A stretch of 41,586 nucleotides of DNA from Bacteroidota bacterium (GTDB lineage Bacteria > Bacteroidota > Bacteroidia > NS11-12g > UBA955): positions 1-41,586 of the forward strand of contig CANFXY010000004.1 in NCBI GenBank assembly GCA_947451105.1, written 5' to 3'. Made by a program: the position numbers and the translations under genes. Under the pieces are notes generated by a model. The model was given only the letters and a program-made list of their open reading frames with translations, had not been told where the DNA came from and did not search any database. Shown in pieces: positions 1 through 29,502 of the stretch. Each line of letters begins with the position of its first letter. Position 1 is the stretch's first letter.

Positions 1-225
1 CAACCTCGCATCATGAATTCTATACTCAAAGGCATAATATTCGCCTAGCTCAGAATCCTGTTCTTGGTTATTAAATCCAAACCTATATTTACTCGTATCT
101 GCACCATCAGAGTAGGCGTATTGGAGCTCTGGAATAGAACTGCCGAAGGTAGAACTATACAAATTGCTTCTTTTTATAGAAGGGCTTTGTTTGGGGACAC
201 TTGCAAAGTTTGCAGATTTGTACAT
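1..225 (-). CDS. Partial Rhs-core cassette protein (runs off the left edge of the window); paralog of 1189..2232
   Basis: Not in the ORF track. Hand translation from ATG 225 gives MYKSANFASVPKQSPSIKRSNLYSSTFGSSIPELQYAYSDGADTSKYRFGFNNQEQDSELGEYYAFEYRIHDARL..., colinear with the N-terminus of the 347-aa ORF. Confidence 0.85.
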   Translation of the reverse strand, partial: MYKSANFASVPKQSPSIKRSNLYSSTFGSSIPELQYAYSDGADTSKYRFGFNNQEQDSELGEYYAFEYRIHDARL

Positions 226-276
226 CTAATGGCTAGCTTTGAATCAAAAATAATAGGTAATTATGACAAAAGCAAA
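209..276. promoter_or_regulatory. Overlapping divergent Bacteroidota sigma-A promoter pair (copy A)
   Basis: Plus strand: TTTG 209-212, 21-nt spacer, TAGCTTTG 234-241. Minus strand: TTTG (caaa 273-276), 20-nt spacer, TATTTTTG (caaaaata 245-252). Confidence 0.7.
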
Positions 277-292
277 CCACTTACTCCCCATT
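263..292 (+). pseudogene. Stub of tyrosine integrase 5' end (about 10 codons)
   Basis: Reads MTKANHLLPI versus MTKTNQLIPL at 2270; similarity is lost after about position 292. Confidence 0.7.
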
Positions 293-491
293 AACTATTT
301 TGTTTTAAATTGGGTAGTTTATGCATATGGCGTAAGATTATCTACAAATACAAATCTAAAACATTGTTGCTTGAAATTTTGAAACAAAATTGCATAATAC
401 TCTAATTGAATCATTTTGGCCTGAGTTACTTAGCCAATGATCATAATTTAGATAATTAATAAAATCTATATATTCATTTTCAAAAAAAGTC

Positions 492-1175
492 TTACTCTTT
501 AATTATCCTCATTATTCCATTGTTTGCATTTAGTTCGTATACGACAGGTTTCTCATAAGTTAAAAATTGATAGTACTTTTTCAATTCGCCCCCATCTTTT
601 ATTAATAAAACTTCAACTTTAATAGCTTCATTTTTCCTAAAATAAACTGGCTCGCTGTAATCTGAGAGTTTGTATTTTAAATAATTATATTCATAAAAAA
701 GTTGATCAACAATAGAATCATTAAAATACTTTGTGACATTTACTTTCATTAAATCTACCCCTTGATCACCAATTTTATTATTGAATGTTACTCGAAATCG
801 AGAATGATAATTGACAATGTAAGTGGTGTCATTATTTTTAAAGTCAAAGTAAAATCTTTGAAATCCTTCTGTGCTTTTATCACTATAACAAACTTGGAAT
901 TTTTTTAAAAAGTTTTTGTCCAAATTCTTCTTAGAAATATGTATAACCCCATGCCTATCTGGGGAAAATTGTATCCCTTTTTTTAAATCTTCTTCATTTG
1001 GATAAATTTCATTGTATTCAATAATTTTACAGCAATATTCTTTTAAGATCTTAAAATCGTCATGGTTTAAAAATTTCATAGAAATCGTATCACTGTTATA
1101 CTTTTGTATGTTTACAGCAACTTTTTTTTCTCCGGCATTACAAGCGGATAGGATTATCAAAAATATATATTTCAT
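492..1175 (-). CDS. Putative lipoprotein; candidate immunity/partner of the upstream Rhs-CT
   Basis: Lipoprotein-like signal MKYIFLIILSAC; starts 13 nt after the Rhs-CT stop; very AT-rich. Confidence 0.7.
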   Translation of the reverse strand: MKYIFLIILSACNAGEKKVAVNIQKYNSDTISMKFLNHDDFKILKEYCCKIIEYNEIYPNEEDLKKGIQFSPDRHGVIHISKKNLDKNFLKKFQVCYSDKSTEGFQRFYFDFKNNDTTYIVNYHSRFRVTFNNKIGDQGVDLMKVNVTKYFNDSIVDQLFYEYNYLKYKLSDYSEPVYFRKNEAIKVEVLLIKDGGELKKYYQFLTYEKPVVYELNANNGIMRIIKE

Positions 1176-1188
1176 TTTTTATAGTTTT

Positions 1189-2232
1189 TTACTTCACTAT
1201 ATAATCATCCATACTAATTTCTTTGCCAATTATTGTCTCTTTGACTTCATAAGTAATAATCTCTTTTGTAATTGTTTTTTTTACTTTATCATCCTTCCAT
1301 ATTTCCCACCAACTTTTTTCTGGATTTTTAACCCATATCTCTTCCGTTACTGTAGTAACAACCTTTACTTTTGTTAATTTCACAAAATTACCTTCGCCTA
1401 CGATTTTGAATTTTCCATTTGCATTTTTTGGATCAATCATTGCCATTGTGCCAGTTGCTGCAATTACAGTGGCACCGGTTTCTAAACACAATTCTTTGGC
1501 AAATGAATTCCCAATGACATATGCACCTGAATTTGCAGTGTTACATGCATTTAAAAAAAATGTTGTATTGGATGTAAACTTTATCAACCCCGATTGTAAA
1601 TTTTCTTTAAGTAATAAAATAGTTTGAGTGTAAAAACCTTTTTGATCTTGCATCAATAATCCTGAAGCATCTCCATGCCCAAAATAGGCAATGTATGAGA
1701 TTGAACCATTATTTTTAGTTTCATTAATCAGAGTAGCTATTATTTCTTGAGCTGTCGTTACTTGACTATAATTAAACCCAAATAATTTACTAATTCTTTG
1801 ACCTTGTTTTTTAAACATTTTTACATTAGTAGCACTGTAATGATTATTGCCAGGGGTATTATATAGCTCAATTGGAACACTTCCAGATAATGCAACTTTT
1901 TCTAGACCTTCCAAATCTATACATCTAACTACATCATTTTCAGCAAAAGCATAAGTACTATTCCAGGAATATTCCATACTCAAAGGATCTACACTCAAAA
2001 ATCTCCCCAACCTCGCATCATGAATTCTATACTCAAAGGCATAGTATTCGCCCAATTCTGCATCTTGTTCTTGATTATTAAACCCAAACCTATATTTACT
2101 CGTATCTGCCCCGTCAGAGTAAGCATATTGGAGCTCTGGAATAGAACTGCCGAAGGGAGGGTAATACAAAGTTGTCCGTTTCGATGAAGTGCTTGGTTTT
2201 AGTGTACTTACAAAATTTGCAATTTTGAACAT
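1189..2232 (-). CDS. Rhs repeat-associated core protein with C-terminal His/Cys (clan CD/DUF4347-like) domain
   Basis: YYPPFG, KYRFGFNNQE, RIHDARLGRFLSVDPL, YAFAENDVVRCIDLEG (DxxG-type boundary). The CT has IAYFGHG...FFLNACNTA. No YD-repeat shell. Confidence 0.85.
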   Translation of the reverse strand: MFKIANFVSTLKPSTSSKRTTLYYPPFGSSIPELQYAYSDGADTSKYRFGFNNQEQDAELGEYYAFEYRIHDARLGRFLSVDPLSMEYSWNSTYAFAENDVVRCIDLEGLEKVALSGSVPIELYNTPGNNHYSATNVKMFKKQGQRISKLFGFNYSQVTTAQEIIATLINETKNNGSISYIAYFGHGDASGLLMQDQKGFYTQTILLLKENLQSGLIKFTSNTTFFLNACNTANSGAYVIGNSFAKELCLETGATVIAATGTMAMIDPKNANGKFKIVGEGNFVKLTKVKVVTTVTEEIWVKNPEKSWWEIWKDDKVKKTITKEIITYEVKETIIGKEISMDDYIVK

Positions 2233-2299
2233 CTTTGGGCTAGCTTTGACTCAAAAATAATATGTAAATATGACAAAAACAAACCAATTAATCCCTCTT
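2008..2299. repeat. Direct repeat copy B
   Basis: See copy A; constant 2007-nt offset. Confidence 0.92.
2216..2283. promoter_or_regulatory. Overlapping divergent sigma-A promoter pair: integrase promoter (+) and cassette promoter (-)
   Basis: Plus strand: TTTG 2216-2219, 21 nt, TAGCTTTG 2241-2248, ATG 2270. Minus strand: TTTG (caaa 2280-2283, inside the integrase CDS), 20 nt, TATTTTTG (2252-2259), ATG 2232. Confidence 0.72.
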
Positions 2300-3316
2300 A
2301 CTCAATTGTATCAAAAGTATGTAGATGAAACCACAAAGGGAAAAAGATTACAGAAAAACGGCAAAATAGTTAACCAATCTACAATAAGGTCATATAATGT
2401 TTTATTGAATAATATTAAATTGTATGAATCTAATTCAAAAGAAACTTTCGTTATTAATGTTAACTACAAATACAGTAAGAGACTGTTTGATTTAGAAAAA
2501 AGAAAATATCATAAGTTTTATATAAAATTTACTGACTTTCTTTATCAAAAAGGATGCACAGATAACTATGTAGGAATTTTGATTAAATATCTCCGTTCAT
2601 TTTTTAATTACTTGAACGAAAACAAAGGTTATAATACAGGCTTATTTTACAAAGAATTCTATATTAGAAAAGAAGAAATACCTGTTATTGTTTTAAATAT
2701 GATGCAGCTAAAACTTTTAATTTCAAATCGAGAATTCGAATCTAAATTACCAAAGCATCTTATGACAACTAAAGACTTATTTGTTTTTGGGTGTACAGTC
2801 GGGCTAAGATTTTCTGATTTGATTTCACTTAAGAAGAAAAATCTAATCATAGATGAAAACAAATACTATATTGTGTCACGCTCATTAAAAACCTCTACAG
2901 ATACTAGAATCAAATTACCCGAATATGCGAGAGATATATTAATCAAATACAAAACTAATCCTAAAAATCTACTTCCCACTATTTCACTAAACCAATTCAA
3001 TAAAAACCTAAAAGATATTGGTCTTATTGCGGGATGGACTTATGAAGTTGGAAAAGAAAGGTGTCGCAGAGGAGTCAGGAAGGAAATTAAAAATAATGGT
3101 AAGACCTACCGATTTTGTGACTTAATATCAAGTCATATCATGAGAAGAACTGCAATAACAACATTATTAATCCATGGCATGCCTGAGCCATTGGTGAGAA
3201 AGATCTCTGGCCATGCTCCGGGTAGCAAAGAATTTTACAAATACGTCCAATATTCTGAATCTTTTCTCGATAAAGAAACGGATAGAGTTTTTGATCTTGT
3301 GATGAGTATATATTGA
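2270..3316 (+). CDS. Tyrosine-type recombinase/integrase
   Basis: Catalytic set visible: GLRFSDL (R), LKTS (K), SHIMRRT (HxxR), ISGH (H), FYKYV (Y). Confidence 0.93.
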   Translation: MTKTNQLIPLTQLYQKYVDETTKGKRLQKNGKIVNQSTIRSYNVLLNNIKLYESNSKETFVINVNYKYSKRLFDLEKRKYHKFYIKFTDFLYQKGCTDNYVGILIKYLRSFFNYLNENKGYNTGLFYKEFYIRKEEIPVIVLNMMQLKLLISNREFESKLPKHLMTTKDLFVFGCTVGLRFSDLISLKKKNLIIDENKYYIVSRSLKTSTDTRIKLPEYARDILIKYKTNPKNLLPTISLNQFNKNLKDIGLIAGWTYEVGKERCRRGVRKEIKNNGKTYRFCDLISSHIMRRTAITTLLIHGMPEPLVRKISGHAPGSKEFYKYVQYSESFLDKETDRVFDLVMSIY

Positions 3317-3374
3317 ACTTTTTTCTTGCATAAATCTAACAAATCGGTTTAATTTGAATAAAATAAACTAAACT

Positions 3375-5762
3375 ATGCGACAGTTGCTTTTATTTGCTTT
3401 TATTAGTAGTGCAACTTTAATTCATGCTCAAATTATAACGAAGTCAATTCCAATAATTGATACTTCTACGAATAGGATCAAAGTTTTAGGCTTTAAAAGC
3501 ACCCCATTTGACACCTCAAGCCTCTTTAATAAGAATTCTAAATTCAAGCAAAGAACCCACCAATTCGCTGACTCGCAAATTTTAGAAAAGCAAAAAAGCA
3601 AAGTTAGAATTACAACTGAAGCTCAAAACACCTTTGGGTTAAATAAAAAAAGAGAATTTCTAGAAAAAATAAAGGCAAAAATCCCACCCAAAGAGAACCT
3701 CTTTAAATTCTCATTGCAATTGCGTTCAGAATCTTTTGCAACCAATGCTCAGAATCCAATGCAAAGAAATGAGTTGATGTATAGCAGATTGTATGTCAGT
3801 CCGAAGTTTACATTGCTAGGATTGCCATTTACATCAAATTTGTTCTATACCACTGAGTCTAATAATACCTATAAGAATAACTATTTTGCATTTAGACTGG
3901 ATGTCAATAGTCTCAGACAATCGGCTGCAGAGCAAATGCAAAAAGAGATTGATGAAATAAACAAATTAGACAGATTACGTCAATTAGATATCAATGCTAA
4001 ATCGATCGAGTCAGATAAAATCAATCAGCAATTAGAATTGCTTAAAAAACAAGTGCCTGATTACGACAATTGGCAACAAACATTAAAGCAAGAGGCTGAA
4101 AGAAAGGTTAACGAGAAACTAGAATGCGAGAAAAAGGCATTAGAAGAAAAACTCAAAACCGCATCAGAAAATGAGAAAGAAAAATTGATACAGGCTTATG
4201 AGCACAAGAAAGACTCAATGGTGTCGACTATTAAGCAGTCAATAAATGATTCTATAAATGATTTAAAGGTTAAAACGAGAAAACAGGTTGATACTTCTAA
4301 ATTAAATAAGTTACTGGCACTAGAAGAACAATATAAGACTCTACAAAAGCAAAAAGAAAAACTAGAACTTCTGCGCAAAGCTGATACGACTGGTATGGCT
4401 TCTAAAATTGCAGGAATTCGGAATCCTAAAAATATAAGAGATCAAATGAAGTCTGGTATGCCAAATCAAGGTCTTTTGAAAAGTGTCTTGGCAGTTGATA
4501 GGTTTGGTATTGGTTTGACTGGTGCCATGTATACGGATTTTACTTTAAGTAACATGTCATTGAAAGGAGTTGATATTGGAGTCAGTAAGAAAAAGTACTT
4601 TTGGGATGCAACAATTGGAAAAACAACTAAGCAATTCTTATTGCCTTTTTCTACAAGTAAAATAGTATATAATCGACCCACAGGCGCACTCCGATTTGGA
4701 ATAGGTTCCAGGAGTTCAGATTTTGTAGCACTCACTTATTTTTCTGCATTTGATTTAAATACAATTGATTCATTCTCCCCCAATGTAAATAATTCGGTAT
4801 TGAGTATTGGGGGTAAACTTAGTTTATTAAAAGGATTGGCAGTTGAAGGAGAATGGGCCCAAAGCCAATACAAAGAACATTATCACTATAAGGTTATTAC
4901 CACAAATACGTCAAACAATATATCAGCGAATGGCACCATGTCATATCAATTAAAAGCTGTTCAACAGGCTGGCAAAAATACAAAGTTTGAAATACAAACA
5001 CGTCAAGTGGGAGCAGCGTTTAGGACAATAGGAAACCCGTTTTTAAGGAGAAACTTTAGAGAACTTGAGTCAAAAGTTGAGCAATTGTTTTTTAAGCAGA
5101 AAATTAAATTTTCAGCAAGTTACAAAGAAATGCGAGACAACCTTAATGAGTTAAATATCACTACCAACAGAATAAAGGGCTATGGATTGAAACTAAATAC
5201 CTCTTTTGACAAATACCCAAACTTGATGTTAAGTTATAGTCCGTATATCCAAGGGAACAACCACCCGGATAGTTTATATAGAACCAATAATCAATTTTCA
5301 ATAACTACGGCAACAATAAACTATAAAAAGAGGTATAAAATTTACAATTGGGTTGGATTGGTCAATTACACAAAATCAACCATGGAAATTGGAGATAAAG
5401 GGCAAGTAGCATATAAAAACATAAGTACCACCCATTCGATTCAAGTTGGTCAAAGACATAACATGCTCTTGTCTTTTTTTAGAAACATTACTGCACCATT
5501 TGTCGATTCTTTAAATTCAAATTCAGTTCAAGTAAGTTATAATTATCTTGCTAAAAAAGGGCTATCAATTGGCCTGCAAACTGATTATTTAAAATACAAG
5601 AACAATGCATTCAAGCAAGGTGTTGGAATAGTTGCAACATCTACAATTTTAAAGAATCTTTCAATTTCAGGTATTGTGCGATATGACAAAATCGATGGAT
5701 TGTGGAAGTTGGAAAATAAAAATGTTTTTACAGGGAAAATGGTTTTGGTGTGGAGGTGGTAG
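3375..5762 (+). CDS. Secreted/outer-membrane beta-barrel-like protein with a coiled-coil insertion
   Basis: Signal peptide MRQLLLFAFISSATLIHA-Q; E/K/Q-rich helical middle; amphipathic strands; terminal aromatic residue (LVWRW). Confidence 0.65.
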   Translation: MRQLLLFAFISSATLIHAQIITKSIPIIDTSTNRIKVLGFKSTPFDTSSLFNKNSKFKQRTHQFADSQILEKQKSKVRITTEAQNTFGLNKKREFLEKIKAKIPPKENLFKFSLQLRSESFATNAQNPMQRNELMYSRLYVSPKFTLLGLPFTSNLFYTTESNNTYKNNYFAFRLDVNSLRQSAAEQMQKEIDEINKLDRLRQLDINAKSIESDKINQQLELLKKQVPDYDNWQQTLKQEAERKVNEKLECEKKALEEKLKTASENEKEKLIQAYEHKKDSMVSTIKQSINDSINDLKVKTRKQVDTSKLNKLLALEEQYKTLQKQKEKLELLRKADTTGMASKIAGIRNPKNIRDQMKSGMPNQGLLKSVLAVDRFGIGLTGAMYTDFTLSNMSLKGVDIGVSKKKYFWDATIGKTTKQFLLPFSTSKIVYNRPTGALRFGIGSRSSDFVALTYFSAFDLNTIDSFSPNVNNSVLSIGGKLSLLKGLAVEGEWAQSQYKEHYHYKVITTNTSNNISANGTMSYQLKAVQQAGKNTKFEIQTRQVGAAFRTIGNPFLRRNFRELESKVEQLFFKQKIKFSASYKEMRDNLNELNITTNRIKGYGLKLNTSFDKYPNLMLSYSPYIQGNNHPDSLYRTNNQFSITTATINYKKRYKIYNWVGLVNYTKSTMEIGDKGQVAYKNISTTHSIQVGQRHNMLLSFFRNITAPFVDSLNSNSVQVSYNYLAKKGLSIGLQTDYLKYKNNAFKQGVGIVATSTILKNLSISGIVRYDKIDGLWKLENKNVFTGKMVLVWRW

Positions 5763-6494: not shown

Positions 6495-7208
6495 TTATAA
6501 TATTAAATCAAATAATTTATAGTAAAAAATATCAAGATATAATGAATTTCCTATGGATCTTTTGTAACTTTTATTTTCCTCATTAGGAGGATTTGTCCCA
6601 ATATACTTACTTCCAAAATAATATTTAAAAACGGGAATAAAGCTGCAGCTATCATAATCTATATAATACAAATAATTATATGCTTTTTTGGGAGATGATT
6701 TTAATTCAAGCTTACCTATATCTCCATTTAAAATCTTAATTTTCAAATCATCAATATTCAACAATTCAATTCTATTCTCGAAAAACAACGGGTACATTTC
6801 ATTATTTTTATTAATCTCGATAGCTTTATGTAAAACGCACTTTTCTAATCCTTTTTTAAATATAATCATCCTTACAAGCTCCCCAAATTTGTAGGTGCAA
6901 AATAACATTGTAGAGTCTTCATGATAAATATATTTGTTATTATTGTTCTCTATGACATAATCTTCAAACAATAACTCAGCTTCTTTTTTATAAAAAAATT
7001 GGTATTTATATTCTTTTGAATTATGAAATACAAGATTGATTTTTACTGGGTAACAATTTTCGTTTATTGCAGTGTCAGTTGGCTCCAACAGGAATGTGTT
7101 AAAATAATTAGAAGATTTATTCATACTAGTTTTAACTTGACAAAAGCTAAAAACAAAAATACTAAAAAAGAATATATTTATTTTCATATAATTTTGGAAT
7201 TTATTCAA
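6495..7208 (-). CDS. Putative lipoprotein/exported protein; candidate immunity/partner of the fused Rhs-CT
   Basis: Starts 3 nt after the stop of 7212..11426; MKINIFFFSIFVFSFC lipoprotein-like signal (alternative start 7187). Confidence 0.7.
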   Translation of the reverse strand: MNKFQNYMKINIFFFSIFVFSFCQVKTSMNKSSNYFNTFLLEPTDTAINENCYPVKINLVFHNSKEYKYQFFYKKEAELLFEDYVIENNNNKYIYHEDSTMLFCTYKFGELVRMIIFKKGLEKCVLHKAIEINKNNEMYPLFFENRIELLNIDDLKIKILNGDIGKLELKSSPKKAYNYLYYIDYDSCSFIPVFKYYFGSKYIGTNPPNEENKSYKRSIGNSLYLDIFYYKLFDLIL

Positions 7209-7211
7209 TAA

Positions 7212-10200
7212 TTACGGAGAACTAATCATTTTATTTTTTGGTTTTGATCTCCCTTTTGGTTTTGGCTTATCAACTTTACCGGTATGAATTAAACTGCTCC
7301 CGTTTATCATTGTAACAAAGCTTCCATCATTCCTAATTTTTAGGTTGCCAACCTGTTCTATGCTCTTTCCTTTAGGAGCAGCTTTGGACCATTTTCGAGC
7401 ATTTGAAGTGGCCATTTCTTGATAAGCTGATTCATGACCATCCCACGGTCCTCCAATAAAAAAATCACTAAACAAGCTTGCTCCAAGATATGACTCTCCT
7501 TGATTTCCATATACATTTCTTTTTGTTAGATCAGCAAATTTTTGAATATATTTATCCCCTCCAATTTGATGTGCTGCTGTAAAACAACCAAGTAGAATTA
7601 TATTCCCTGACTCTAATAAATTATTTCCTAAATCCTCTAAAGTTTTAGCTAATAAAACGCTTTCAGAATAGTAGTAATTGCCAATTCCTTGAGCAGAATA
7701 AGTATAAATTCCATGCCCAACAATATACATATTATTGTATGTTTTTCCACTTGTATTTAATTGAATATTTAAATTTTCGATATTGTCTACAACAAGTACA
7801 TCAATATTAGAATTATTCATTGCAGCTTGATAAGCATTATAAAATGTCCCACCTACTTTGGAATCACTTTCACTAAACACTGTTATAGATTTTGCAGTTT
7901 CACCTAGTGGTTTTGCAAAACCCACTGAATCACCGTTTTGGTCAACGAATACAATTGGATTATTTAGAAAGCAAGAATATCCACTTACACCTCTTAAAGA
8001 CTTTGGATCGATGTTAAACCTCCTGCCCAATCGGCTATCGAACTGCCAATATTCTGCAGTATACGAATTATCTTCTCCTGATACTTCATTATCTTTTTCT
8101 TGCCCATTAAACCCAAACCTATATTTACTCGTATCTGCCCCGTCAGAGTAGGCATATTGAAGTTCTGGTATGGAACTTCCGATATTACTATAACTTCGGC
8201 TAACATCAGTGTCGTAAGGGCCAAAGAATTTAATGTAGATGTCTAAGGATTTTTGAAAATACTCTATAGCTTTCGAATATATTTTTTCTCCACTCCATAT
8301 TTTTCCAATTTGTTCGTAATCAAAAGCTACATTTGGATGTTCAATTCCCCAAAATTTCATATCAATTGCCAAGGATTTTTCGGCATACTCCATTGCCAAT
8401 AAATATTCTCCTTTATGATACATTGCACTACCTATCATGTAGTTTGAAACCGATAATTCAGGGTGCACATTACCTAATAGTTTTGCTTTAATATCAAAGC
8501 TTATAAGGTAATTTTCTAATGCATTTTTATAAGTTCCTCTGGCTTCCCATAGACTTCCTATGCTTTCATAGGCGTCAGCTACAAAAATATTTTCTGGCCC
8601 ATAGGTTTTTAAGCGAATCACTAAGGATTTTTGAAGAAATTCCATGGCCATGTCGTATTTATCTTGCCTTTTTAGATTTTTTCCAATTTGCCCATAAGAA
8701 TATGAGATTTTAGGATGTTCAGTACCCAACGATTTTATTTTAATATCTAAGGATTTTTGAAATAGGTCAATAGCCTTACTAATGTTTCCAAAATTGGATT
8801 CAAGAACTCCGATGCAGTCCATTATTTGAAAATCATTTTGCATGATTTCTAGATTAAAATCTAATTTATTAAAGTGTTTTAATGCCTCCTCTTTTTCAAA
8901 AAGATGAATGGCCATTAATCCTAACATGATCGCTTCCTTGCAATCAAATTTATTTAGCGGCATTAATTCACTAAGAAAATCTTTCCGAATAACATGCAAC
9001 TGCAATTCTTCCAACTGCTTATCCAATTTCAACAAAGCCTTCCAATCATTTTCCGTAGGATTTTCTAATATTTTTTCAATTAGTTTTTTGCTGCCAAATG
9101 ACTTTAAATACAAGAGCAAAGGGTTGATGCATAAGTCTATGCCTTCTGTTCCAGAATCTATTAATTCAACAATAAGGCTGATGTCTTCCATTAAAGCCCT
9201 TTCAGATAAGTAATATTCTATGCCGCCCTTGTGAAGCTTGTTTTTGTCTTTTAAAATGGTGTTTATAAAGGCTAACTCAATTTTGTCTTCCTCATTTTGG
9301 AGTTTTTGCCCCAATACATACAACAATGCGCCCTCAACGGTAAAAGCAATGCAGGCGTTTAAGTCTTTCGTGTAACGGCTGATCCAACCTAGGTTTTTTA
9401 ATCTTGGGTAGGGTGAATTGATGTTGTCAGAAACCAGATAATCTTTAAGTGTTTCGTTTTTCAATACATCATCCAGGAACAATTCGTTTTCGCCTTTCTC
9501 CCAAATTTTATTTGCCAATAAGTTAAAAAATATTTGCTCATCTTCAGTGAAGGTTTTTAACCAGTCTTTCCATATATTTAAATGCAGTATGCCTTTTTTC
9601 GGTAAGGACTTTCCATTGTATATTTCTAAAAATATGCGGAGTACTAAGGGGTTGCTAATTTGGTTGTACAGCCCGCGGTCAAAGCTTGCGATGTCATCAA
9701 ATTTGAACTGCGGCTTAAACCTAGACTTGTCCTTGCTGGTGTATTTGTCCCAAGCGGCGTTTAATTCCTTCATGTTCAAAGGGGTTAACCAATTGGCATA
9801 AGCACTTAGGCCTTCTTCGTTCTCGCTTTTTTCTCCGTAAATTTTTTGTAAATCTTCTTCTGATAGGGCATAACGGTTTAAATCCGCTTTTGAATTGGCT
9901 CTGCTGCTGACCACAAATTTTAAACTTCCCGCCTCAAACAACTTCGAAAGTTCTATAATTTCAGTCCAAAGATCCTCTGCATTGTGTGCCTCATTCAGAC
10001 CATCAATCAAAATAAAACAAGGTTCATTTTGAGTGCCTGCAATATTTGTATAGGTTCTTAATTCAGAGGCAAGATCAATATTTAGCAAATAAGCAATCTG
10101 CTCTTTAATTGTTGGCTTTTCCATTCGCCCAGCCCGTATAAGTAGGCTGGGTAAATTCCTTTCATGGTATTGCTTTTGAATTTCTACCAAAAGATTTGTT

Positions 10201-11408
10201 TTTCCGCTTCCCGCCTCCGCAGAAATAAAGAAAATACTTGCCCTGGCGCCTATCCATTCTCTGAGTTTTATTTCAATGTCCTCACGGTGCACATAAATAC
10301 CGGGCAGCACTTTTTTTTCTGCCAGCAAGGTGTCGTTTAGCAACTTATTTTCTTCTGCAATTCTTGTTAAGAAAACCTCTTTGGTAAAGGTCTCTGGCGA
10401 ATATGGAACTTCTTTCTGTTTGTTGCGCAAAAGCAAATTCAGCTTTTCAAGGATCTTGCCAGAGCTTTGTTTTTCAGTGCCTTCAGGACTGAAGAACTTT
10501 ATGGTCTTACCGGTATAGGACTCATAAGCTAAAATTTGTTCTTTGTCTTCCTTCGCCAAAGACACTTCTCCAGGGACAACAAAGAATGGCAATACATCAA
10601 GCGTCTCACCCTTTGGATTGGTAAGCCATACACTTCCACTTTCTTGCTGCTTGCTTTCATAGATCTTAATTTCGGATGAATGCAATAAATAGGTTTCACC
10701 ATGCTCATGCTTGCTCATGGCATAATCCGATGCGAAGGCCATTTGCTCCAATAGATGTCTAAAAATAGGGAAGTATTCCTCCCAAAGTTTCAGGCAAGAA
10801 TGTTCATCTAAGGTTAAACCATGTCCCAAATAACGGTTGCGAAAATTAATAAGCATACCAATTGCTGTTGCTTCTTGCTTTTTTAATTGGACATCGCCAT
10901 TGGCATCTATGAATTCAATTTCTCCGTTGTATAATTTTCTTTTTTTACCTGTTTCAATGGCCTCATAATAGCTGTTTAATTCAGGGCAGAAAAACGCATG
11001 CTCTGTTTCGTTTAGATATTTAAGTGTTTCACGCACAAATAAATTCCATGTTCCAAATGAAGGTTCTGCAATGCTTTGCTGAAATAAGGCTACCATGCGT
11101 TTGTCTTTCAATGGGCTATTGAAAAATTCTGAGGCACTTAAGAGTCCCAAATACTTTAAGTAGTTTAAGAAAGTGTCTTTAAACAGGTTGATTTTAGTCC
11201 ATGGGTGTTTTTCCAATAAGGTGCGCTTTAAAGGATAGGCAATAACATAGGGCAAAGCCGCAATCAATGCTTCATCTTCATCAGACAATTCATTACTTTC
11301 AATGAGTTCAATTAGTGCCTGGGCACAAACCGGACAATTCATGGCAGCCGGAAATGCAGCTTTGGAAATGGCAATGGCACAGGTGGGGTTTTGGCAAATA
11401 AATTTCAT
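7212..11408 (-). CDS. Chimeric protein: Zn-ribbon, HEPN-like domain, NACHT-type STAND ATPase, winged helix, 42-aa TPRs, Rhs core, His/Cys CT domain
   Basis: CQNPTC...CPVC; FRNRYLGHG; Walker A AEAGSGKT; Walker B FILIDGLNE; NPLVLR; five TPRs plus a truncated sixth (SYSNIG); then SSIPELQYAYSDG...RLGRRFNIDP...NNPIVFVDQNGD; CT with IVGHG...LLGC. ATG 11408 preferred over TTG 11426. Confidence 0.85.
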   Translation of the reverse strand: MKFICQNPTCAIAISKAAFPAAMNCPVCAQALIELIESNELSDEDEALIAALPYVIAYPLKRTLLEKHPWTKINLFKDTFLNYLKYLGLLSASEFFNSPLKDKRMVALFQQSIAEPSFGTWNLFVRETLKYLNETEHAFFCPELNSYYEAIETGKKRKLYNGEIEFIDANGDVQLKKQEATAIGMLINFRNRYLGHGLTLDEHSCLKLWEEYFPIFRHLLEQMAFASDYAMSKHEHGETYLLHSSEIKIYESKQQESGSVWLTNPKGETLDVLPFFVVPGEVSLAKEDKEQILAYESYTGKTIKFFSPEGTEKQSSGKILEKLNLLLRNKQKEVPYSPETFTKEVFLTRIAEENKLLNDTLLAEKKVLPGIYVHREDIEIKLREWIGARASIFFISAEAGSGKTNLLVEIQKQYHERNLPSLLIRAGRMEKPTIKEQIAYLLNIDLASELRTYTNIAGTQNEPCFILIDGLNEAHNAEDLWTEIIELSKLFEAGSLKFVVSSRANSKADLNRYALSEEDLQKIYGEKSENEEGLSAYANWLTPLNMKELNAAWDKYTSKDKSRFKPQFKFDDIASFDRGLYNQISNPLVLRIFLEIYNGKSLPKKGILHLNIWKDWLKTFTEDEQIFFNLLANKIWEKGENELFLDDVLKNETLKDYLVSDNINSPYPRLKNLGWISRYTKDLNACIAFTVEGALLYVLGQKLQNEEDKIELAFINTILKDKNKLHKGGIEYYLSERALMEDISLIVELIDSGTEGIDLCINPLLLYLKSFGSKKLIEKILENPTENDWKALLKLDKQLEELQLHVIRKDFLSELMPLNKFDCKEAIMLGLMAIHLFEKEEALKHFNKLDFNLEIMQNDFQIMDCIGVLESNFGNISKAIDLFQKSLDIKIKSLGTEHPKISYSYGQIGKNLKRQDKYDMAMEFLQKSLVIRLKTYGPENIFVADAYESIGSLWEARGTYKNALENYLISFDIKAKLLGNVHPELSVSNYMIGSAMYHKGEYLLAMEYAEKSLAIDMKFWGIEHPNVAFDYEQIGKIWSGEKIYSKAIEYFQKSLDIYIKFFGPYDTDVSRSYSNIGSSIPELQYAYSDGADTSKYRFGFNGQEKDNEVSGEDNSYTAEYWQFDSRLGRRFNIDPKSLRGVSGYSCFLNNPIVFVDQNGDSVGFAKPLGETAKSITVFSESDSKVGGTFYNAYQAAMNNSNIDVLVVDNIENLNIQLNTSGKTYNNMYIVGHGIYTYSAQGIGNYYYSESVLLAKTLEDLGNNLLESGNIILLGCFTAAHQIGGDKYIQKFADLTKRNVYGNQGESYLGASLFSDFFIGGPWDGHESAYQEMATSNARKWSKAAPKGKSIEQVGNLKIRNDGSFVTMINGSSLIHTGKVDKPKPKGRSKPKNKMISSP
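8108..8182. repeat. Direct repeat copy C (Rhs-core start only)
   Basis: aaacccaaacctatatttactcgtatctgccccgtcagagta is identical to copy B; similarity stops abruptly at ccga 8179-8182. Confidence 0.9.
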
Positions 11409-11713
11409 GGTTTTGATGCGAAACAATTATAATAGAAATATTTCAGTAAATTTAAATTCAAGCTACTTAATTTAATATTTATTAATATTCTAATGTATAC
11501 ATTTTTGTTGAAGGCTAAAGTTTTTTCAATGAAAGAGGCGTTTGCCTCAATGAAGTTTAACTTTAAAACCATGAAAGAGCTTTTCCCTTAAAATAAAATC
11601 CCCTTCAACCCTTCCTTTATCTCTATTCTTCATTGAATATTTTTTAATATTTAAAATAAGAGTCCTATATTGCCAACAGATATTAAAATAAAGCCTTAAA
11701 GGCAAGCATTATT

Positions 11714-15353: not shown

Positions 15354-17024
15354 TTATAGTTCGTTTAGTTTTTCTAATTTTTCTTTTACACGCATTGTGT
15401 TTGTATGTATTTCACCAAAGGTTTTAATAAAAATAGGCAATGCTTTTAGATAATAGATTTTTGCCAATTCAAAATTCTCCAAGTCTGCATTGCATTTGCC
15501 AATGTTATAATATGAAAAACCAAAAGAAGGGTGGTCTTCTTCGTGGATATCGAGTTTTATTTGCAAGCTTTTTTGAAAATAAACCATTGCATTTTCAAAA
15601 TCGCCAGACTGCTGGTAAACGCCTCCAACATTGCTAATTGTTGATGCATACCAAGGGTGCTTTATGCCATATAACTTTTCCAATATAGCCAATGCTTTAT
15701 TGTTGTGTTCTAGAGACGATTTAAAGTCTTTTAGATTTAAATCTAACATAGCAATATTGTTGTAAAGGGTTGCCGTCCATTTATGGTATTCGCCAAAAAT
15801 GTTTCTGAATATCTTAATGGCTTTATTGAAATATAGCCTAGCCTCAGCATATTTTTTATTGCTGCTAAAGAGCTCCGCAATGTTGTTGTAAGAAATTGCT
15901 GTATCTGGATGGTGTCTTCCGTTTGTTTTTTCTTCTAAATGAATCGATTTATTGTAATAATTTAGTGCTTCATTAAAGTCCCCTTTTTCATGGTGCAATT
16001 GGCCTAAGTTATTGTAGATTTTGCCGATTGACTCATGCTCTAATCCAAAATTTTCTATGTAAATCTCCAATGCCTTCTCGAAGTTTATTTGACTTTCCTC
16101 AAATTTGCCTTCATTCAGCAGAGCACCACCCAGATTGTTGGTAATTTCTGCACTTATTTCAATGTGTACTTCATTTAAAAGATCAATTATGCTTAGTGCT
16201 TTTTTATATGCAAGAATCGATTTATTATAAGTTCCCAAAGCATTCCATTCTGAACCAATATTTTGAAAAAATACCACTGCTTCCTTGTCATAATTTGGAA
16301 AATTTATAGCCGTTAATTGCTCAAGCTTTTCCACTTTCTCATTGGCATTTAAAAATTTAACTGAATGAACAAACAATAGTGCTTTTTTAGGGGTATCTGG
16401 TTCAATAAAATTTAAAACTTCTTTTAAAATAAATCTCAGTATATCACTTTTTTGAAGTTTTTCTAATTTGCTTACAATTTCAAGCAGTAGTTTAATGTCA
16501 TTGTCCGAAGATGTTTCGAATAATGATTGCGCAATGCTTTTTATAGCTTGATTTGTCGAATCTTTACTTGCATTTAAAAAAGCATGGGATAGGGGAACTA
16601 GCGTTGAATTTGTGAACTTCCCACCAAAGTCTACAAACCATAACAATAAGTCAAATTCATGGCTGTCAACTTTTCGAATCAAAAATTGCTCGAACCCTTC
16701 ATTTAAACCTGTTAAATTAATTTTATTAATATATTCGAAAATTTCATTTGCCGTGAGATTTGAAAATCTAGCTTCTAAAACCTCACCCAGCACATAATGA
16801 AAATAACCCTCAACGGTAAAAGTAACATATAACTTTTCATCTCTAATATTTTCTGTTAAAACCCCTTCCAATAGCATTTGTTGATAGGGTGAATCTATTT
16901 GTATGCTCTTAACGAAATCTCCAATTTGTTCATCGTCGAACAGCAAATCCACTGGCAAGATGTGTTGCTCGTGTTGAAGCATGAGTTCAGAAAGGCGGTA
17001 TAGGAGAAGGTGATTAGAGGTCAT
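15354..17024 (-). CDS. Winged-helix-like N-domain + about 7 TPRs (42-aa type); module 3
   Basis: Conserved MTSN...EGYFHYVLGEV N-terminus; YNNLG/HP TPR pattern. Confidence 0.88.
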   Translation of the reverse strand: MTSNHLLLYRLSELMLQHEQHILPVDLLFDDEQIGDFVKSIQIDSPYQQMLLEGVLTENIRDEKLYVTFTVEGYFHYVLGEVLEARFSNLTANEIFEYINKINLTGLNEGFEQFLIRKVDSHEFDLLLWFVDFGGKFTNSTLVPLSHAFLNASKDSTNQAIKSIAQSLFETSSDNDIKLLLEIVSKLEKLQKSDILRFILKEVLNFIEPDTPKKALLFVHSVKFLNANEKVEKLEQLTAINFPNYDKEAVVFFQNIGSEWNALGTYNKSILAYKKALSIIDLLNEVHIEISAEITNNLGGALLNEGKFEESQINFEKALEIYIENFGLEHESIGKIYNNLGQLHHEKGDFNEALNYYNKSIHLEEKTNGRHHPDTAISYNNIAELFSSNKKYAEARLYFNKAIKIFRNIFGEYHKWTATLYNNIAMLDLNLKDFKSSLEHNNKALAILEKLYGIKHPWYASTISNVGGVYQQSGDFENAMVYFQKSLQIKLDIHEEDHPSFGFSYYNIGKCNADLENFELAKIYYLKALPIFIKTFGEIHTNTMRVKEKLEKLNEL

Positions 17025-18714
17025 TGAGTTTGTTTATCTTTTCATTAAGTAGCAATGTATAATGATGTCCTTCGCCTAATTTATCCTTGAATATTTGATG
17101 AGCCTTAGAATAGTAGTTGTAAGCTTTTTGATATTCAAGTTCTAATTTGAAAATGTTGCCGATATTATTGTATGATTTCCCTGTAGCTACATGGGAATCT
17201 CCAAAAGTTTTTGATCTTATTTCAAATGCTTTACAATAATATTCCTTAGCAATTTCACTTTTGTTTTTATTAAACCAAGCTGTCCCTAAATTGTCGAAAA
17301 CTATCGCTGTAAAAGGATGTGATTCACCTTCATTTTTCAATGCAATGATTAATGATTTTTCATAAAAACTAATTGCCATGTCATAATCTTCATTTGAATT
17401 CCATGCAGATCCTAAGTTGTTAAAAGTTGTTCCTGTTAATGGATGCTCACTGCCATATACCATGATATCAATTGCTAAAACTTGCTCATGATAGGATATC
17501 GCTTTCTTGCACTCACCTTTTTCATTTAATGCCAAAGCTATATTGTTGTATACAGTGCTAGTTGAAGGATGTATTTTTCCGCAAACCTTTAAATGAATTT
17601 GTAATGATTTTTCTAGATAATCAATTGCTAAATCATATTCACCTTTTTCAATTAATGTCAATCCTAAATTGTTATAAATTTCCCCAATAGATATATGTTG
17701 ATGATCATGAGAATTTGTTAGGATTTCCAACGATTTTTTATAATATTCTATGGCTTTATCATAATCACTCTTGTCACTCCAGCAATCACCTAATTTGTGG
17801 TAACATCTGGATATTGATTGATGTATATTTCCGTGAATCTTCTGTGCAATATTCAATCCTTTTTCAAAGTATTTAATTGCTGTTTCATGTTCTGCTATAT
17901 TTTGAAATTGTTGCCCTAATGTGTAAAAAAAATAAGCTAATTCTTCGTTCTTTTTAAGTCTATGTGATTTGTCGATTAGCTGATCTAGTTTTTCTCGTCT
18001 TTGATTGAATGGTATGTAATTTATAGACTTTATATAGGCATTAGCTTCAAATAAATTAGTTGGCTCTATAATCTCATTAAACCTTTTATATATAGTTGCA
18101 ATATGGTCATGTTTTTGGATTCCCTCTAAATGTTTAATCGTTAATTCAAGTACATTGAAATCGTTTGTGCTTGGAAGATTAAATAATTCATTTAGAACTC
18201 TATTTATTTGTGTTGCATAACCTATATCAGTATTTTCTTCGGAATTGATTTTTTTTTCAGATTGTAAAAAAGCATATGAAAGAGGAACAATACATATTTC
18301 TATGTGTTTTCCTCCGTAGTCAATCAACCAGATCAATCTTGTAAAATTATCCATTTCAACATCCCGAATCAAACACTGCTCAACCCCTTCCTTTGCGCCA
18401 TTCAACTTATTCTCCTCAACAATTTGCTTCAAGGCCTCAGCACCCAATCCTTCAGTTTGGTTGTATATAACCTCGCCCAACACATAATGAAAATAACCCT
18501 CCACGGTAAAACTTATATATAATTTTTCATCTCTAACAGATTCTGTTAAAACCCCTTCCATGAGCATTTGCTGGTAGGGTGAATCTATTTGAATACTCTT
18601 CACAAGATCTCCAATTTGCTCATCATCAAAGAGCAAATCCACTGATAAGATGTTTTGCTCATGTTTAAGCATCAGTTCTGTAAGGCGGTGAAGGAGGAGG
18701 TTGTTAGAGGTCAT
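17014..18714 (-). CDS. Winged-helix-like N-domain + about 7 TPRs; module 2
   Basis: 70 of the first 82 residues identical to module 3 (hand count); overlaps each neighbour by 11 nt. Confidence 0.88.
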   Translation of the reverse strand: MTSNNLLLHRLTELMLKHEQNILSVDLLFDDEQIGDLVKSIQIDSPYQQMLMEGVLTESVRDEKLYISFTVEGYFHYVLGEVIYNQTEGLGAEALKQIVEENKLNGAKEGVEQCLIRDVEMDNFTRLIWLIDYGGKHIEICIVPLSYAFLQSEKKINSEENTDIGYATQINRVLNELFNLPSTNDFNVLELTIKHLEGIQKHDHIATIYKRFNEIIEPTNLFEANAYIKSINYIPFNQRREKLDQLIDKSHRLKKNEELAYFFYTLGQQFQNIAEHETAIKYFEKGLNIAQKIHGNIHQSISRCYHKLGDCWSDKSDYDKAIEYYKKSLEILTNSHDHQHISIGEIYNNLGLTLIEKGEYDLAIDYLEKSLQIHLKVCGKIHPSTSTVYNNIALALNEKGECKKAISYHEQVLAIDIMVYGSEHPLTGTTFNNLGSAWNSNEDYDMAISFYEKSLIIALKNEGESHPFTAIVFDNLGTAWFNKNKSEIAKEYYCKAFEIRSKTFGDSHVATGKSYNNIGNIFKLELEYQKAYNYYSKAHQIFKDKLGEGHHYTLLLNEKINKLNDL

Positions 18715-20233
18715 TGAGTTCTGATATTTTATCTTTTATCAATTTGGTTGTAGAATGATTAATCCCTAATAATTGTTTGAAAAGGCTGTACGATTTTTTA
18801 CAGTTCTTTCTTGCATTTGAAATGTCATTATTATTTTTTTGAGACATTGCAAGATTATACAATATCGTAGCTGTCATTACATGGCAATCTCCATTTATTT
18901 GAATTGAGTATGTTAACGATTTACTGTATTTCGTTACGGCATTTTCGTATCTTTCTTCATACTTGTAAACCACTCCTAGATTGTTCAATGTTACTATAAT
19001 TGAAGAATTAGGCTCGTTGAAAATATTTTCTTTAATTCTCAGAGCCTCTTCGTAACAATGAATTGCCAATTCATATTCTCCTGATGACCTATAAACTAAA
19101 CCAAGATTATTATAACTTGTTGCTGTAATCTTATCAAAACTACCAAAGTTTTCAAGAGTCAGCTCAAGAGATTTAATTTGGTATTTTAATGCTGTGCCGT
19201 AAGATTCCTTTTGGCGGTATGCCTCTCCAAGTGTCGAATAATTACAATCTTTCTCATAATAATTTTGAATCGATTGCTTATTTATAATCTTGTTAGATTT
19301 TTTCGCATAGTAAATAGACTTTTCCAAATCATCCTTGTACAAACTGACTTGAGCCATGTGCATGTAAATTTTAACTTTTAATGGTTCATTTAATTTTACC
19401 TTTTTTAAAGCCACAGCATAAAGCGAAAACGCATTTTTGTAATCTGAAATGAGTTCGTATTGATATGCAAGAGCGTAATAAAAATCTGACGGCACACCTT
19501 TAAGTGAAACCAACTTTGCTTTGAGCGAATGCAATCTTTTTTTTCTCGTAACGGGAGAAAGGTATTCGAGCGAATTTATGATTAACATATATTCTTCAGG
19601 TGTTTTTGGACTCAGAAATCTACATAAAAAATTACAAATAACTTCTAAATGCTCTATTTTATTGTATTTCTCGAGCATTGAAACTGCATCTGAAATCACA
19701 TCGATATCTAACAAAGAATAATTCTTAAGCAGCTTTTTTAAAATATTTCGAATTTCTTTTTGACGACTTTTAAAACTACATTTTAAAAATGCATATGCCA
19801 AAGAATTTACACATACTTCAGTAGAATTTGACAAATTGTCTATTAACCAGATCAAACGGGATAGATTATCCTTCTGAACATCCCGAATCAAACACTGCTC
19901 AACCCCTTCTTTTGCACCGTTTAATTTATTATGCTCTATTATTTCTTTTAAATATTCAGCGCTTTTTCCCTCAGATTTTGCATAAATTACCTCCCCCAAC
20001 ACATAATGAAAATAACCCTCTACAGAATAACTTACATACAACTTTTCTTCTCTAACAGATTCTGTTAAAACCCCTTCCATGAGCATTTGCTGGTAGGGAG
20101 AATCTATTTGAATACTCTTTACAAAATCTCCAATTTGCCCATCGTCAAACAGCAAATCCACTGGCAATAGGTGTTGCTCATGTTGGAGCATGAGTTCGGC
20201 AAGATGAAAAAGTAATTTATGATTATCTGTCAT
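18704..20233 (-). CDS. Winged-helix-like N-domain + about 6 TPRs; module 1
   Basis: Same N-domain; shares LNGAKEGVEQCLIRDV with module 2; in frame with the upstream ATPase. Confidence 0.88.
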   Translation of the reverse strand: MTDNHKLLFHLAELMLQHEQHLLPVDLLFDDGQIGDFVKSIQIDSPYQQMLMEGVLTESVREEKLYVSYSVEGYFHYVLGEVIYAKSEGKSAEYLKEIIEHNKLNGAKEGVEQCLIRDVQKDNLSRLIWLIDNLSNSTEVCVNSLAYAFLKCSFKSRQKEIRNILKKLLKNYSLLDIDVISDAVSMLEKYNKIEHLEVICNFLCRFLSPKTPEEYMLIINSLEYLSPVTRKKRLHSLKAKLVSLKGVPSDFYYALAYQYELISDYKNAFSLYAVALKKVKLNEPLKVKIYMHMAQVSLYKDDLEKSIYYAKKSNKIINKQSIQNYYEKDCNYSTLGEAYRQKESYGTALKYQIKSLELTLENFGSFDKITATSYNNLGLVYRSSGEYELAIHCYEEALRIKENIFNEPNSSIIVTLNNLGVVYKYEERYENAVTKYSKSLTYSIQINGDCHVMTATILYNLAMSQKNNNDISNARKNCKKSYSLFKQLLGINHSTTKLIKDKISELNDL

Positions 20234-20239
20234 CAGAAG

Positions 20240-23771: not shown

Positions 23772-25169
23772 TTGGCGAAATCAAAGTTAAATATAGAAGA
23801 AGAACTTTCCCGTTGTGTCAATCAATTGTTGTTGCAGGAACCATTCTATGCCCACGTTTTGGCAGGAACCGTGCGTGCAATTACAGATGAGGTGCAAACT
23901 GCTGCAGTGGGTTTTAGAAACGAGCTCATTATGTTGATGGTGAATGAGGACTTCTTTCTTAAAGAGCTTAAATCAGCTTACCAACGCACTGCCGTTCTCA
24001 AGCACGAGGTTTTGCACTTGGTGTTTAGACATTTGTTTAGAGATAAAATAAAAGAAGATCCTGAACTCTTCAACATTGCGGCAGACATTGTGGTGAATCA
24101 GTATATTGGCCAATGGGAATTGCCAGACTCCGCTGTTACCATTGAACGTTTTCCGGATTTAAATTTAAAAACGGAGCAAAGCCTAGAGTATTACTATGAT
24201 ATTTTATCACAGCTGCAAAAATCCATTGATCAATCCAAATCGCAACAAGAATTAGATTCGGGCAATGGAGGCGATTCAAACGGTGGATCAGGAGGGTCGC
24301 AGGGCGACAAGGGTGGTTCAGGGTCTAAAGACGATTCATCTGGGCCTGAGAAGGGCAATAAACCAAAACAAAAGGAGACTGAAAAACCCCTCCATGAGCA
24401 GGCGCCCATAAGTGCTAGCGCCTTAGAGCAAATATATGGACAAGTAAGACACGGCGACCATTCAAAATGGGTGGTGAAAGATGGGTCAAATGCGTATACA
24501 GCAGATGGAAAGTCTATTCAAGGCAATATGGTTTCAGGCATGGAAACCATGACCGATAAAAGTATTTTGGATGCAGTGCAGCGCATGCCTTCCAAATATT
24601 ATGGAACATTGCCTGCTGGGGTAATCACGCAATTGGATGCCATCCGCGAATCCATGAAACCCAAGTTGGATTGGAAAAGGGTTTTGCGCTTGTTTTCAAG
24701 TTCAAGCGGCAGAACGGTTGTATACCACAGCATGAAGCGCATCAGCAAGCGATATGGAACAAGACCCGGAGTGCGCATCAAGCAGTATAAAAAAATTGCG
24801 GTTGTGGTAGACACCTCAGGTTCTATAGATGAGAAAACGCTAATGTTTTTTTTTACAGAAATAGAAGCCATTCGCCGCAATGGTGCTGAGGTTACAATTA
24901 TAGAATGTGATGCGGCAGTTGGTAATGTATATCCGTATAAAAAGTCTGCAAACATTAAAGTTACAGGTGGTGGTGGAACCAATTACGACCCAGCTTTTGA
25001 ACACATCAACGCGAATCGAAATTTAAGGATTGATGCGTGTGTGTATTTAACGGACGGCTATGCGCCTGAGCCACAGATAAAGCCAAGATGCAAACTCTTA
25101 TACGTCATAACGCCTGATGGGAAACTAGGTCCTCATCTTAAATTTGGCAAGGCGATTAAAATGAATTAG
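23772..25169 (+). CDS. HExxH metallopeptidase-like + vWA protein (DUF2201-like)
   Basis: LKHEVLH, FNIAADIVVNQ, Gly/Ser linker, MIDAS VVDTSGS, GGGGTNY, YLTDG. Confidence 0.88.
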   Translation: MAKSKLNIEEELSRCVNQLLLQEPFYAHVLAGTVRAITDEVQTAAVGFRNELIMLMVNEDFFLKELKSAYQRTAVLKHEVLHLVFRHLFRDKIKEDPELFNIAADIVVNQYIGQWELPDSAVTIERFPDLNLKTEQSLEYYYDILSQLQKSIDQSKSQQELDSGNGGDSNGGSGGSQGDKGGSGSKDDSSGPEKGNKPKQKETEKPLHEQAPISASALEQIYGQVRHGDHSKWVVKDGSNAYTADGKSIQGNMVSGMETMTDKSILDAVQRMPSKYYGTLPAGVITQLDAIRESMKPKLDWKRVLRLFSSSSGRTVVYHSMKRISKRYGTRPGVRIKQYKKIAVVVDTSGSIDEKTLMFFFTEIEAIRRNGAEVTIIECDAAVGNVYPYKKSANIKVTGGGGTNYDPAFEHINANRNLRIDACVYLTDGYAPEPQIKPRCKLLYVITPDGKLGPHLKFGKAIKMN

Positions 25170-29490: not shown

Positions 29491-29502
29491 GTAATAAATT
29501 GC

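Follow-up and report, generated by a model that had tools for sequence, protein, structure and literature searches.

A predicted bidirectional sigma-A promoter between a tyrosine recombinase gene and an orphan Rhs cassette in Bacteroidota

How can two genes be transcribed in opposite directions when only 37 nt separate their start codons, and what would such an arrangement do beside a toxin cassette? The question is raised by a 41,586-nt stretch of DNA from a Bacteroidota bacterium of the UBA955 lineage (GenBank assembly GCA_947451105.1, contig CANFXY010000004.1, positions 1 to 41,586 of the forward strand), which was analyzed over its whole length and is referred to here as the window. Near its left end, the gene of a tyrosine recombinase (the integrase, ATG at 2270) diverges from an open reading frame (ORF, ATG at 2232) that begins an orphan C-terminal cassette of an Rhs toxin, and a second copy of this junction lies at 209-276. 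Judging from sequence motifs, their conservation, and their genomic association, we consider it probable (roughly 0.6) that the 37-bp spacer is a compact bidirectional sigma-A promoter beside an Rhs-cassette recombinase, and that it serves as an expression dock for a parked cassette.

Two candidate -7 boxes stand head to head in the spacer, TAGCTTTG on the plus strand (2241-2248) and, 3 nt further on, TATTTTTG on the minus strand (2259-2252), and each -33 region falls within the first 4-6 codons of the opposite gene (plus-strand TTTG at 2216-2219, minus-strand TTTG at 2283-2280). The other copy of the junction has the same arrangement, with boxes at 209-212 and 234-241 on the plus strand and at 252-245 and 276-273 on the minus strand, and again 3 nt between the opposed -7 boxes. 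A preliminary description of this DNA had reported the four boxes in both copies, the 3-nt gap, and a cassette -33 box inside integrase codons 4-5; direct reading of the sequence and a pattern search confirmed all of this, with 2280-2283 set against the ATG at 2270. It had not mentioned the mirror arrangement, in which the integrase -33 box lies within codons 5-6 of the cassette ORF. The elements of the junction, with the evidence for each, are as follows.

209..241, plus strand: relic integrase promoter, copy 1, TTTG-N21-TAGCTTTG (sequence reading, pattern search)
245..276, minus strand: predicted cassette-1 promoter, TTTG-N20-TATTTTTG read from 276 to 245 (sequence, pattern search, relatives)
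263..300, plus strand: remnant of the integrase 5' end, about 12-14 codons, fading (copy alignment)
2216..2248, plus strand: predicted integrase promoter, copy 2, TTTG-N21-TAGCTTTG, predicted start 2253 (A) (sequence, pattern search, relatives, PMC9723704)
2252..2283, minus strand: predicted cassette-2 promoter, TTTG-N20-TATTTTTG read from 2283 to 2252, predicted start 2247 (A), -33 box in integrase codons 4-5 (sequence, pattern search, relatives)
2270..3316, plus strand: tyrosine recombinase gene, 348 amino acids (PF00589, family alignment)

In both copies the -7 box TAnnTTTG is exact on both strands, and a TTTG stands at the expected distance of 19-21 nt (N21 for the plus-strand promoter, N20 for the minus-strand one). 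The fit of both predicted promoters to the Bacteroidota sigma-A -7 consensus is thus supported. In Flavobacterium psychrophilum the -7 box occupies positions -12 to -5, and a median 5' untranslated region (5'UTR) of 24 nt is known for a flavobacterium (PMC9723704). Applying that box position to the window predicts transcription starts at 2253 (plus) and 2247 (minus), both A, with leaders of 17 and 15 nt. The two transcripts would not overlap, and each -7 box would lie inside the opposite leader, so that one polymerase should exclude the other on a given template. Mutually exclusive transcription of integrase and cassette, which the preliminary description had suggested, is therefore plausible; in bidirectional promoters of Escherichia coli, competition matters only when one side is strongly activated (PMC12825309).

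The full consensus, TTTG-N19-21-TAnnTTTG, has six matches on the two strands of the 41.6-kb window, four of them at the junction copies, against 2.12 +/- 1.5 expected from shuffled windows, and six or more were reached in 3 of 100 shuffles. The two copies belong to a single 293-nt repeat with 83% identity and hence are not independent, but they are not uniformly conserved. Box positions are identical between them at 24 of 24 sites, whereas the rest of 151-293 agrees at 83 of 119 positions (one-sided Fisher test, p=4.5e-4), and outside the Rhs core overall identity is only 75%; the copies appear old enough to be informative. Within the Rhs core, differences fall 2/0/11 by codon position (10 synonymous, 1 non-synonymous), and this part of the repeat is conserved as protein. 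The spacer and the first integrase codons make up a second conserved island.

To place the junction among its relatives, a profile built from 40 related recombinases, whose alignment also backs the integrase start at 2270, was scanned against one genome per species, and the best 80 of 408 confirmed loci were kept (L numbers below); closer relatives may exist. Minus-strand TAnnTTTG occurs at -8 to -11 from the integrase ATG in the window (both copies) and in L002, L003, L004, L005, L051, and L079, and overlaps the ATG in L012, L018, and L020. It is absent from the integrase spacer of L006 and from that of L001, the one close relative without a divergent cassette. Exact head-to-head pairs with a spacer of 2-4 nt occur six times in 954 kb, and five of the six are at an integrase/cassette junction. 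Among low-GC sources, a reverse-strand box lies within -30 to +2 of 9/29 integrase starts versus 7/177 other ORF starts (p=3.8e-5), an enrichment that the A-rich leader of the genes does not explain. By locus class, the box is found in 6/9 divergent loci versus 1/17 co-directional or other loci. In the window, L002, L003, and L079, the ATG of the cassette ORF is 33-37 nt from that of the integrase, so that any cassette promoter must extend into the integrase gene.

Upstream elements are also found at orphan cassettes more generally. An exact upstream box precedes 22 of 106 orphan cassettes (background 0.073), and 31 of the 106 carry the element TTCTTTGA at 34-54 nt upstream of the orphan core (background 0.0095; e.g., L035, L017, L025, L043, L059). 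On the integrase strand this element reads TCAAAGAAC, about 85 nt before the integrase ATG; a variant -7 box and a binding site are both possible readings of it. These counts indicate that orphan cassettes commonly bring their own upstream element. The inner cassettes of L018 share a box-bearing upstream repeat without integrase DNA. In Salmonella, orphan Rhs-CT/immunity pairs have their own promoters, mapped by 5'RACE (PMC7043789). Taken together, comparison among loci makes the promoter reading well supported as a prediction.

What kind of enzyme would the plus-strand promoter serve? The window recombinase aligns with its family at the catalytic residues R180, K207, H289, R292, H315, and Y325, all conserved; integrase P0001, an example of a closer relative outside the kept loci, is 95% identical to it, and a PDB sequence search with it returned no matches. 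Locus classes, assigned with a core-domain hidden Markov model (HMM) built on cassettes, show an orphan Rhs core abutting the integrase in 57 of the 80 loci. In 27 it is divergent and immediately upstream, as in the window, and in 30 it is co-directional and immediately downstream; of the remainder, five have a core elsewhere, nine are uninformative (the contig ends less than 400 nt upstream), and nine have no core. The distance from core start to integrase ATG is 96-126 nt in 24 of the 27 entries assessed, window included. A full-length rhs gene, taken as one with at least 1400 in-frame codons ahead of its core, can be seen in 13 loci, and in all 13 it faces the orphan next to the integrase from the other strand. 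Identity between such a main gene and the orphan begins sharply at DYYPFG codons in all nine aligned pairs and remains near-perfect for about 77-170 nt. The corresponding parts of the window, with the other parts of its cassettes, are listed here.

1..225, minus strand: 5' part of orphan Rhs-core cassette 1, whose ORF starts at 225 and runs past the window start (core HMM match from 159)
136..159, minus strand: YSSTFGSS codons of copy 1, candidate recombination-site region (in register with 2143-2166; analogy to related loci)
492..1175, minus strand: putative immunity gene of cassette 2, 227 amino acids, no known family (starts 13 nt past the toxin stop)
1189..2232, minus strand: orphan cassette 2, with a 23-residue leader, an RHS repeat-associated core (residues 24-110), and a C-terminal toxin domain (TIGR03696)
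2143..2166, minus strand: YYPPFGSS codons, candidate recombinase site and 5' edge of cassette homology (related loci; homology of the third copy begins here)
8091..8182, minus strand: third copy of the Rhs-core tract, inside the NTPase/TPR ORF 7212-11426 (repeat search, sequence comparison)

Cassette 2 encodes 347 amino acids; its core scores 47.6 bits against TIGR03696 (cut-off 32.5) over model positions 1-76 of 76, and its C-terminal domain is of no known family. The ORF has a core without the Rhs repeat shell, a variable C terminus, and a small gene downstream, and on these sequence features ORF 1189-2232 with its downstream gene is classed as an orphan Rhs C-terminal cassette. The two toxin domains of the window have no homology beyond the core, and its two immunity-like proteins have none to each other. 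The third core copy is 85-89% identical to the other two, and all three stand in the window as direct repeats. A scan for intrinsic terminators found none in the right place between the cassettes, and the whole window gave no Rfam match; a sigma-70 scan is inapplicable to this phylum.

Pairs of closely related loci record changes beside the integrase. L041 and L043 (Ferruginibacter-type contigs) are 99.99% identical over 11.2 kb and differ by one 1536-nt cassette next to the integrase. The first 30 nt of L041 match the second cassette of L043 (L041:1-60 compared with L043:8283-8335 and 9819-9871), the junction falls within 20-23 shared nt over YPFGMLMP codons, and the dock is left intact. L030 and L032 (99.5% identical) likewise have copy numbers that are one cassette apart, across a direct repeat of 160 nt (L030:6007-8212, L032:5996-6155). 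The toxin of cassette 2 has a homologue in L001 (41% identity) that is turned the other way with respect to the syntenic integrase. Given the class counts, the orientation of full-length rhs genes, the sharp edge of identity, the two indels, and this change of toxin orientation, a recombinase-driven cassette system is the most economical reading, and the family probably shuffles Rhs cassettes. The association of recombinase and Rhs cassettes is more notable than the promoters themselves; in the main texts that were searched, subscription journals not covered, we found no publication that describes Rhs cassettes as coupled to a tyrosine recombinase.

Two further observations concern the loci of this family. 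Contig ends often fall 100-300 nt upstream of the integrase, in or near the Rhs-core tract (L002, L003, L005, L020, L022, L025, L040, L041, L042, L046, L079, and others), and many integrase homologues are on contigs of 1-5 kb, which fits assembly breaks at a repeated or polymorphic junction. In L001, three orphan cassettes (250-4994, plus strand) lie upstream of the integrase, co-directional with it and with their 3' end facing it.

The mechanism that we propose joins these parts as follows. The minus-strand promoter would drive the parked operon of Rhs core, toxin, and immunity gene, and the plus-strand promoter would drive a tyrosine recombinase of a Bacteroidota family that appears physically dedicated to Rhs C-terminal cassettes. 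The enzyme would most likely act on cassettes at a short site that spans the YYPFG codons, some 100 nt away from the integrase start, rearranging them by gain or loss and, where a full rhs gene faces a cassette, by inversion. The promoter and leader stub would act as a fixed dock that keeps any parked cassette transcribed, above all its immunity gene, the expression of which a population that switches toxins would need. The copy at 209-276 would be a former dock, left with about 12-14 integrase codons and with its boxes still conserved.

Several observations weigh against this reading. The window holds no full-length rhs gene, and no exact box is present on either strand of the spacer in 20 of the 27 divergent loci, those of more distant relatives. 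The preliminary description took TTTG-N19-21-TAnnTTTG as the consensus and looked to further copies for conservation of all four boxes. The -7 half of that proposal holds in relatives, as a pair in close relatives with a divergent cassette, but the -33 half is weak: for the minus promoter, TTG at a spacing of 18-21 occurs in only 5 of 11 related copies, and the -33 TTTG motif was derived from 23 Bacteroides fragilis promoters and is described as not identifiable in Flavobacterium johnsoniae (PMC7366714). The minus -33 motif coincides with integrase codons for Lys-Thr-Asn, which L001 retains too. Lone TANNTTTG boxes are not enriched in the window (72 versus 67.8 expected from shuffles), so that the case for the promoters rests on combination and position. 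In the 26 leader codons between ATG 2232 and the core, differences between the copies fall 8/10/8 by codon position (3 synonymous, 13 non-synonymous), and with no coding constraint on this leader, translation from ATG 2232 is unproven. Copy 1 retains a perfect integrase promoter with no integrase to drive, and its boxes may be conserved for another function of the palindrome or because there has been too little time for decay. As for the recombinase, the support for the L041 junction comes from the opening 30 nt of a metagenomic contig, no flipped segment was seen between near-identical loci (seven pairs, all collinear, two of them with the one-cassette indels above), and inversion is suggested by locus architecture only.

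Might only one of the two promoters be real? If the orphan cassette is silent, as orphan cassettes are classically viewed, only the integrase promoter would be real, and the minus-strand box would be a by-product of the A-rich leader that Bacteroidota mRNAs require ahead of the start codon. CAAAnnTA is indeed A-rich and lies within the integrase 5'UTR, and the cassette leader codons are unconstrained, but we regard this as unlikely, since the reverse box is enriched before integrase starts over other ORF starts, tracks the divergent cassette and is lost in L001, the position of the cassette start codon is conserved, and the Salmonella orphans are transcribed (PMC7043789). It is slightly less likely still that the inverted repeat TTTG-N3-CAAA and its flanks serve chiefly to bind a protein, as an accessory site of the recombinase or as an operator, with the -7 match secondary. 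The two boxes do form a dyad, copy 1 conserves the plus-strand box with no gene for it to drive, and the box pair is almost confined to the junction; yet each half fits the sigma-A box in all of its six specified positions and both lie at leader distances typical of flavobacteria (PMC9723704), a spacer that varies from 2 to 4 nt among relatives would be poorly tolerated by a strict dyad operator, and the predicted crossover site is about 100 nt away. Chance matches in AT-rich DNA, with recent duplication giving the appearance of conservation, we hold to be highly improbable: at about 35% GC single boxes occur at chance level and the two copies are not independent, but these are only 75% identical outside the core and still keep all 24 box positions, and independent loci have the same pair in the same place.

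The remaining alternative starts from the integrase remnant. Promoter, integrase 5' codons, and cassette could form a mobile non-autonomous unit, captured as in an integron by insertion at an attI-like site near codon 12, each insertion supplying a new promoter and a new integrase N terminus. The repeat does run from the promoter into the integrase, fading near codon 12-14, and the first 12 integrase residues, which differ at six positions between the copies, are the least conserved part of the family. We nevertheless consider this very unlikely. Among kept loci whose sequence extends 1.5 kb or more upstream of the integrase, the window alone has a remnant; the gain or loss that separates L041 from L043 crosses at YPFG codons with the dock untouched; cassette 3' ends have no conserved element; and the homology of the copies fades gradually, to about codon 12-14 or further (position about 300), with no sharp end. 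If two adjacent integrase-cassette modules had lost the DNA between them and selection had spared the promoter, the relic would be explained equally well; such a deletion fits as well as a programmed mechanism. The preliminary description had seen about 10 retained integrase codons, explained them by the promoter, and proposed aligning further copies to learn whether conservation always ends just past the -33 box. A remnant is there, with its fade nearer codon 12-14 than exactly at codon 10. The explanation is not supported, for this is a single instance, no other array examined has an integrase remnant, and inner cassettes of other arrays have boxes without integrase DNA. Its comparison with integrons also had to be given up except as a functional likeness. 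An NCBIfam scan of the recombinase gave only Xer-type models, at 29-32 bits against cut-offs of 220-335, and no integron-specific IntI model; at cassette 3' ends we found no attC-like shared element, only weak AT-rich inverted repeats with no Rfam match; and the cassettes are not promoterless genes under one Pc, as both in the window have their own promoter copy. A 13-nt inverted repeat (297-309/378-390, 92% complementary, 68-nt spacer) starts where the copy homology fades; it is AT-rich and could be chance.

Elsewhere in the window, ORF 7212-11426 (minus strand, 1404 amino acids) has a zinc-ribbon-like N terminus, a P-loop NTPase, and TPR repeats, and switches in mid-TPR (..SYSNIGS, then SIPELQY..) into Rhs core positions 12-75, followed by a DUF4347-like C terminus. 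The fusion junction, at about 8160-8185, is at FG/GS codons where cassette homology starts elsewhere, and its DNA forms a 7-7-7 dyad; the ORF looks like a cassette recombined into a non-Rhs gene. Beside it stands an immunity-like ORF (6495-7208, minus strand). A paralogous NTPase gene (37% identity over 622 amino acids to the N terminus of the fused ORF), followed by three TPR genes with common 300-nt repeats (D1), occupies 15354-22699 on the minus strand. After the integrase, 3375-5762 (plus strand) encodes a 795-amino-acid protein with a signal-peptide-like N terminus, a coiled-coil middle, and an aromatic C terminus, with no Pfam or NCBIfam match; as a universal partner of the recombinase it was dropped, because homologues are present in only 4 of the 80 loci (syntenic only in L001, L003, L005, and L006). 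Further on, 23772-30621 and 30888-39326 hold a DUF2201 metallopeptidase/VWA gene, a 1444-residue LRR protein, a MoxR-like AAA_5 ATPase, and then a 2812-residue PKD-repeat protein with a CHU_C type IX secretion signal, genes that are unrelated to the junction but place the window in Bacteroidota.

A fuller account, which we offer tentatively and at somewhat short of even odds, would combine these strands. The enzyme would belong to a Bacteroidota recombinase family dedicated to Rhs-toxin cassettes, a hybrid of shufflon and integron. It would cut at a site of about 20 bp where the YYPFG codons mark the 5' edge of the Rhs core, invert the parked cassette against a full rhs gene, and add or remove cassettes beside itself. 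The fixed bidirectional-promoter dock would keep immunity on, so that siblings that have switched toxins spare each other, and the NTPase/TPR::Rhs-core fusion at 7212-11426 would be a delivery to a pseudo-site. C-terminal warhead swapping in polymorphic toxins is usually ascribed to homologous recombination with silent orphan cassettes. In most related loci an enzyme is encoded at a constant distance from the cassette edge, so that switching may be programmed, and a promoter at the dock would keep the parked immunity gene expressed, a requirement for a population that switches toxins. If both the promoters and the activity of the recombinase prove real, environmental Bacteroidota would offer, in the variation of their Rhs toxins, a tractable system of phase variation, and the head-to-head pair of sigma-A boxes would cleanly exemplify a bidirectional promoter beyond those of sigma-70; if not, a correct but ordinary observation of motifs is left.

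Among known systems, class 1 integrons have a cassette promoter (Pc) that lies within the recombinase gene, faces away from it, and may interfere with the promoter of that gene, PintI1. The window differs in that its cassettes are toxin-immunity operons, often with their own promoters, and in that only the -33 region enters the gene. Familiar shufflons and gene-altering inversions include the R64 pilV shufflon and hsdS inversion with a tyrosine recombinase. As in these systems, a tyrosine recombinase stands beside alternative 3' segments that share short identical tracts, inverted, with the expressed gene (PMC10028968). A systematic inversion survey (PMC9881135) has no occurrence of "Rhs" or "toxin" in its main text. 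The shufflon pattern of a recombinase beside inverted repeats in a variable gene is seen in 13 related loci; the window has only direct repeats.

The rAID-1 arrays of Bacteroidales are alike by description, with a Bacteroidota tyrosine recombinase beside an array of conflict cassettes and repeated junctions (10.1101/471110; PMC12247911). rAID arrays are co-directional with the recombinase and consist of immunity genes only (10.1101/471110), whereas the window cassettes are divergent, keep Rhs core and toxin, and lack the run of at least two co-directional orphan immunity genes that marks rAID-1. Polyimmunity loci adjoining XerC/D are another closely similar described system.

The bidirectional promoters of Warman and Grainger share with the junction close divergent starts from elements on opposite strands, with RNA polymerase binding in one orientation at a time (10.1101/2020.01.31.928960; PMC12825309). 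In theirs, sigma-70 -10 hexamers overlap by their own symmetry and starts are typically 18 bp apart; at the window junction two non-palindromic sigma-A boxes abut, crossed, and the predicted starts are 6 bp apart, against a known range of 7-25 bp. The text of 10.1101/2020.01.31.928960 contains no term beginning "Bacteroid". In Salmonella, Rhs switching proceeds by homologous recombination (PMC3967940), and the orphan Rhs-CT/immunity pairs have their promoter inside the conserved core and no recombinase (PMC7043789). Like the window cassettes as we read them, however, the Salmonella orphans keep the end of the Rhs core, have a promoter of their own, and make both toxin and immunity protein (PMC7043789).

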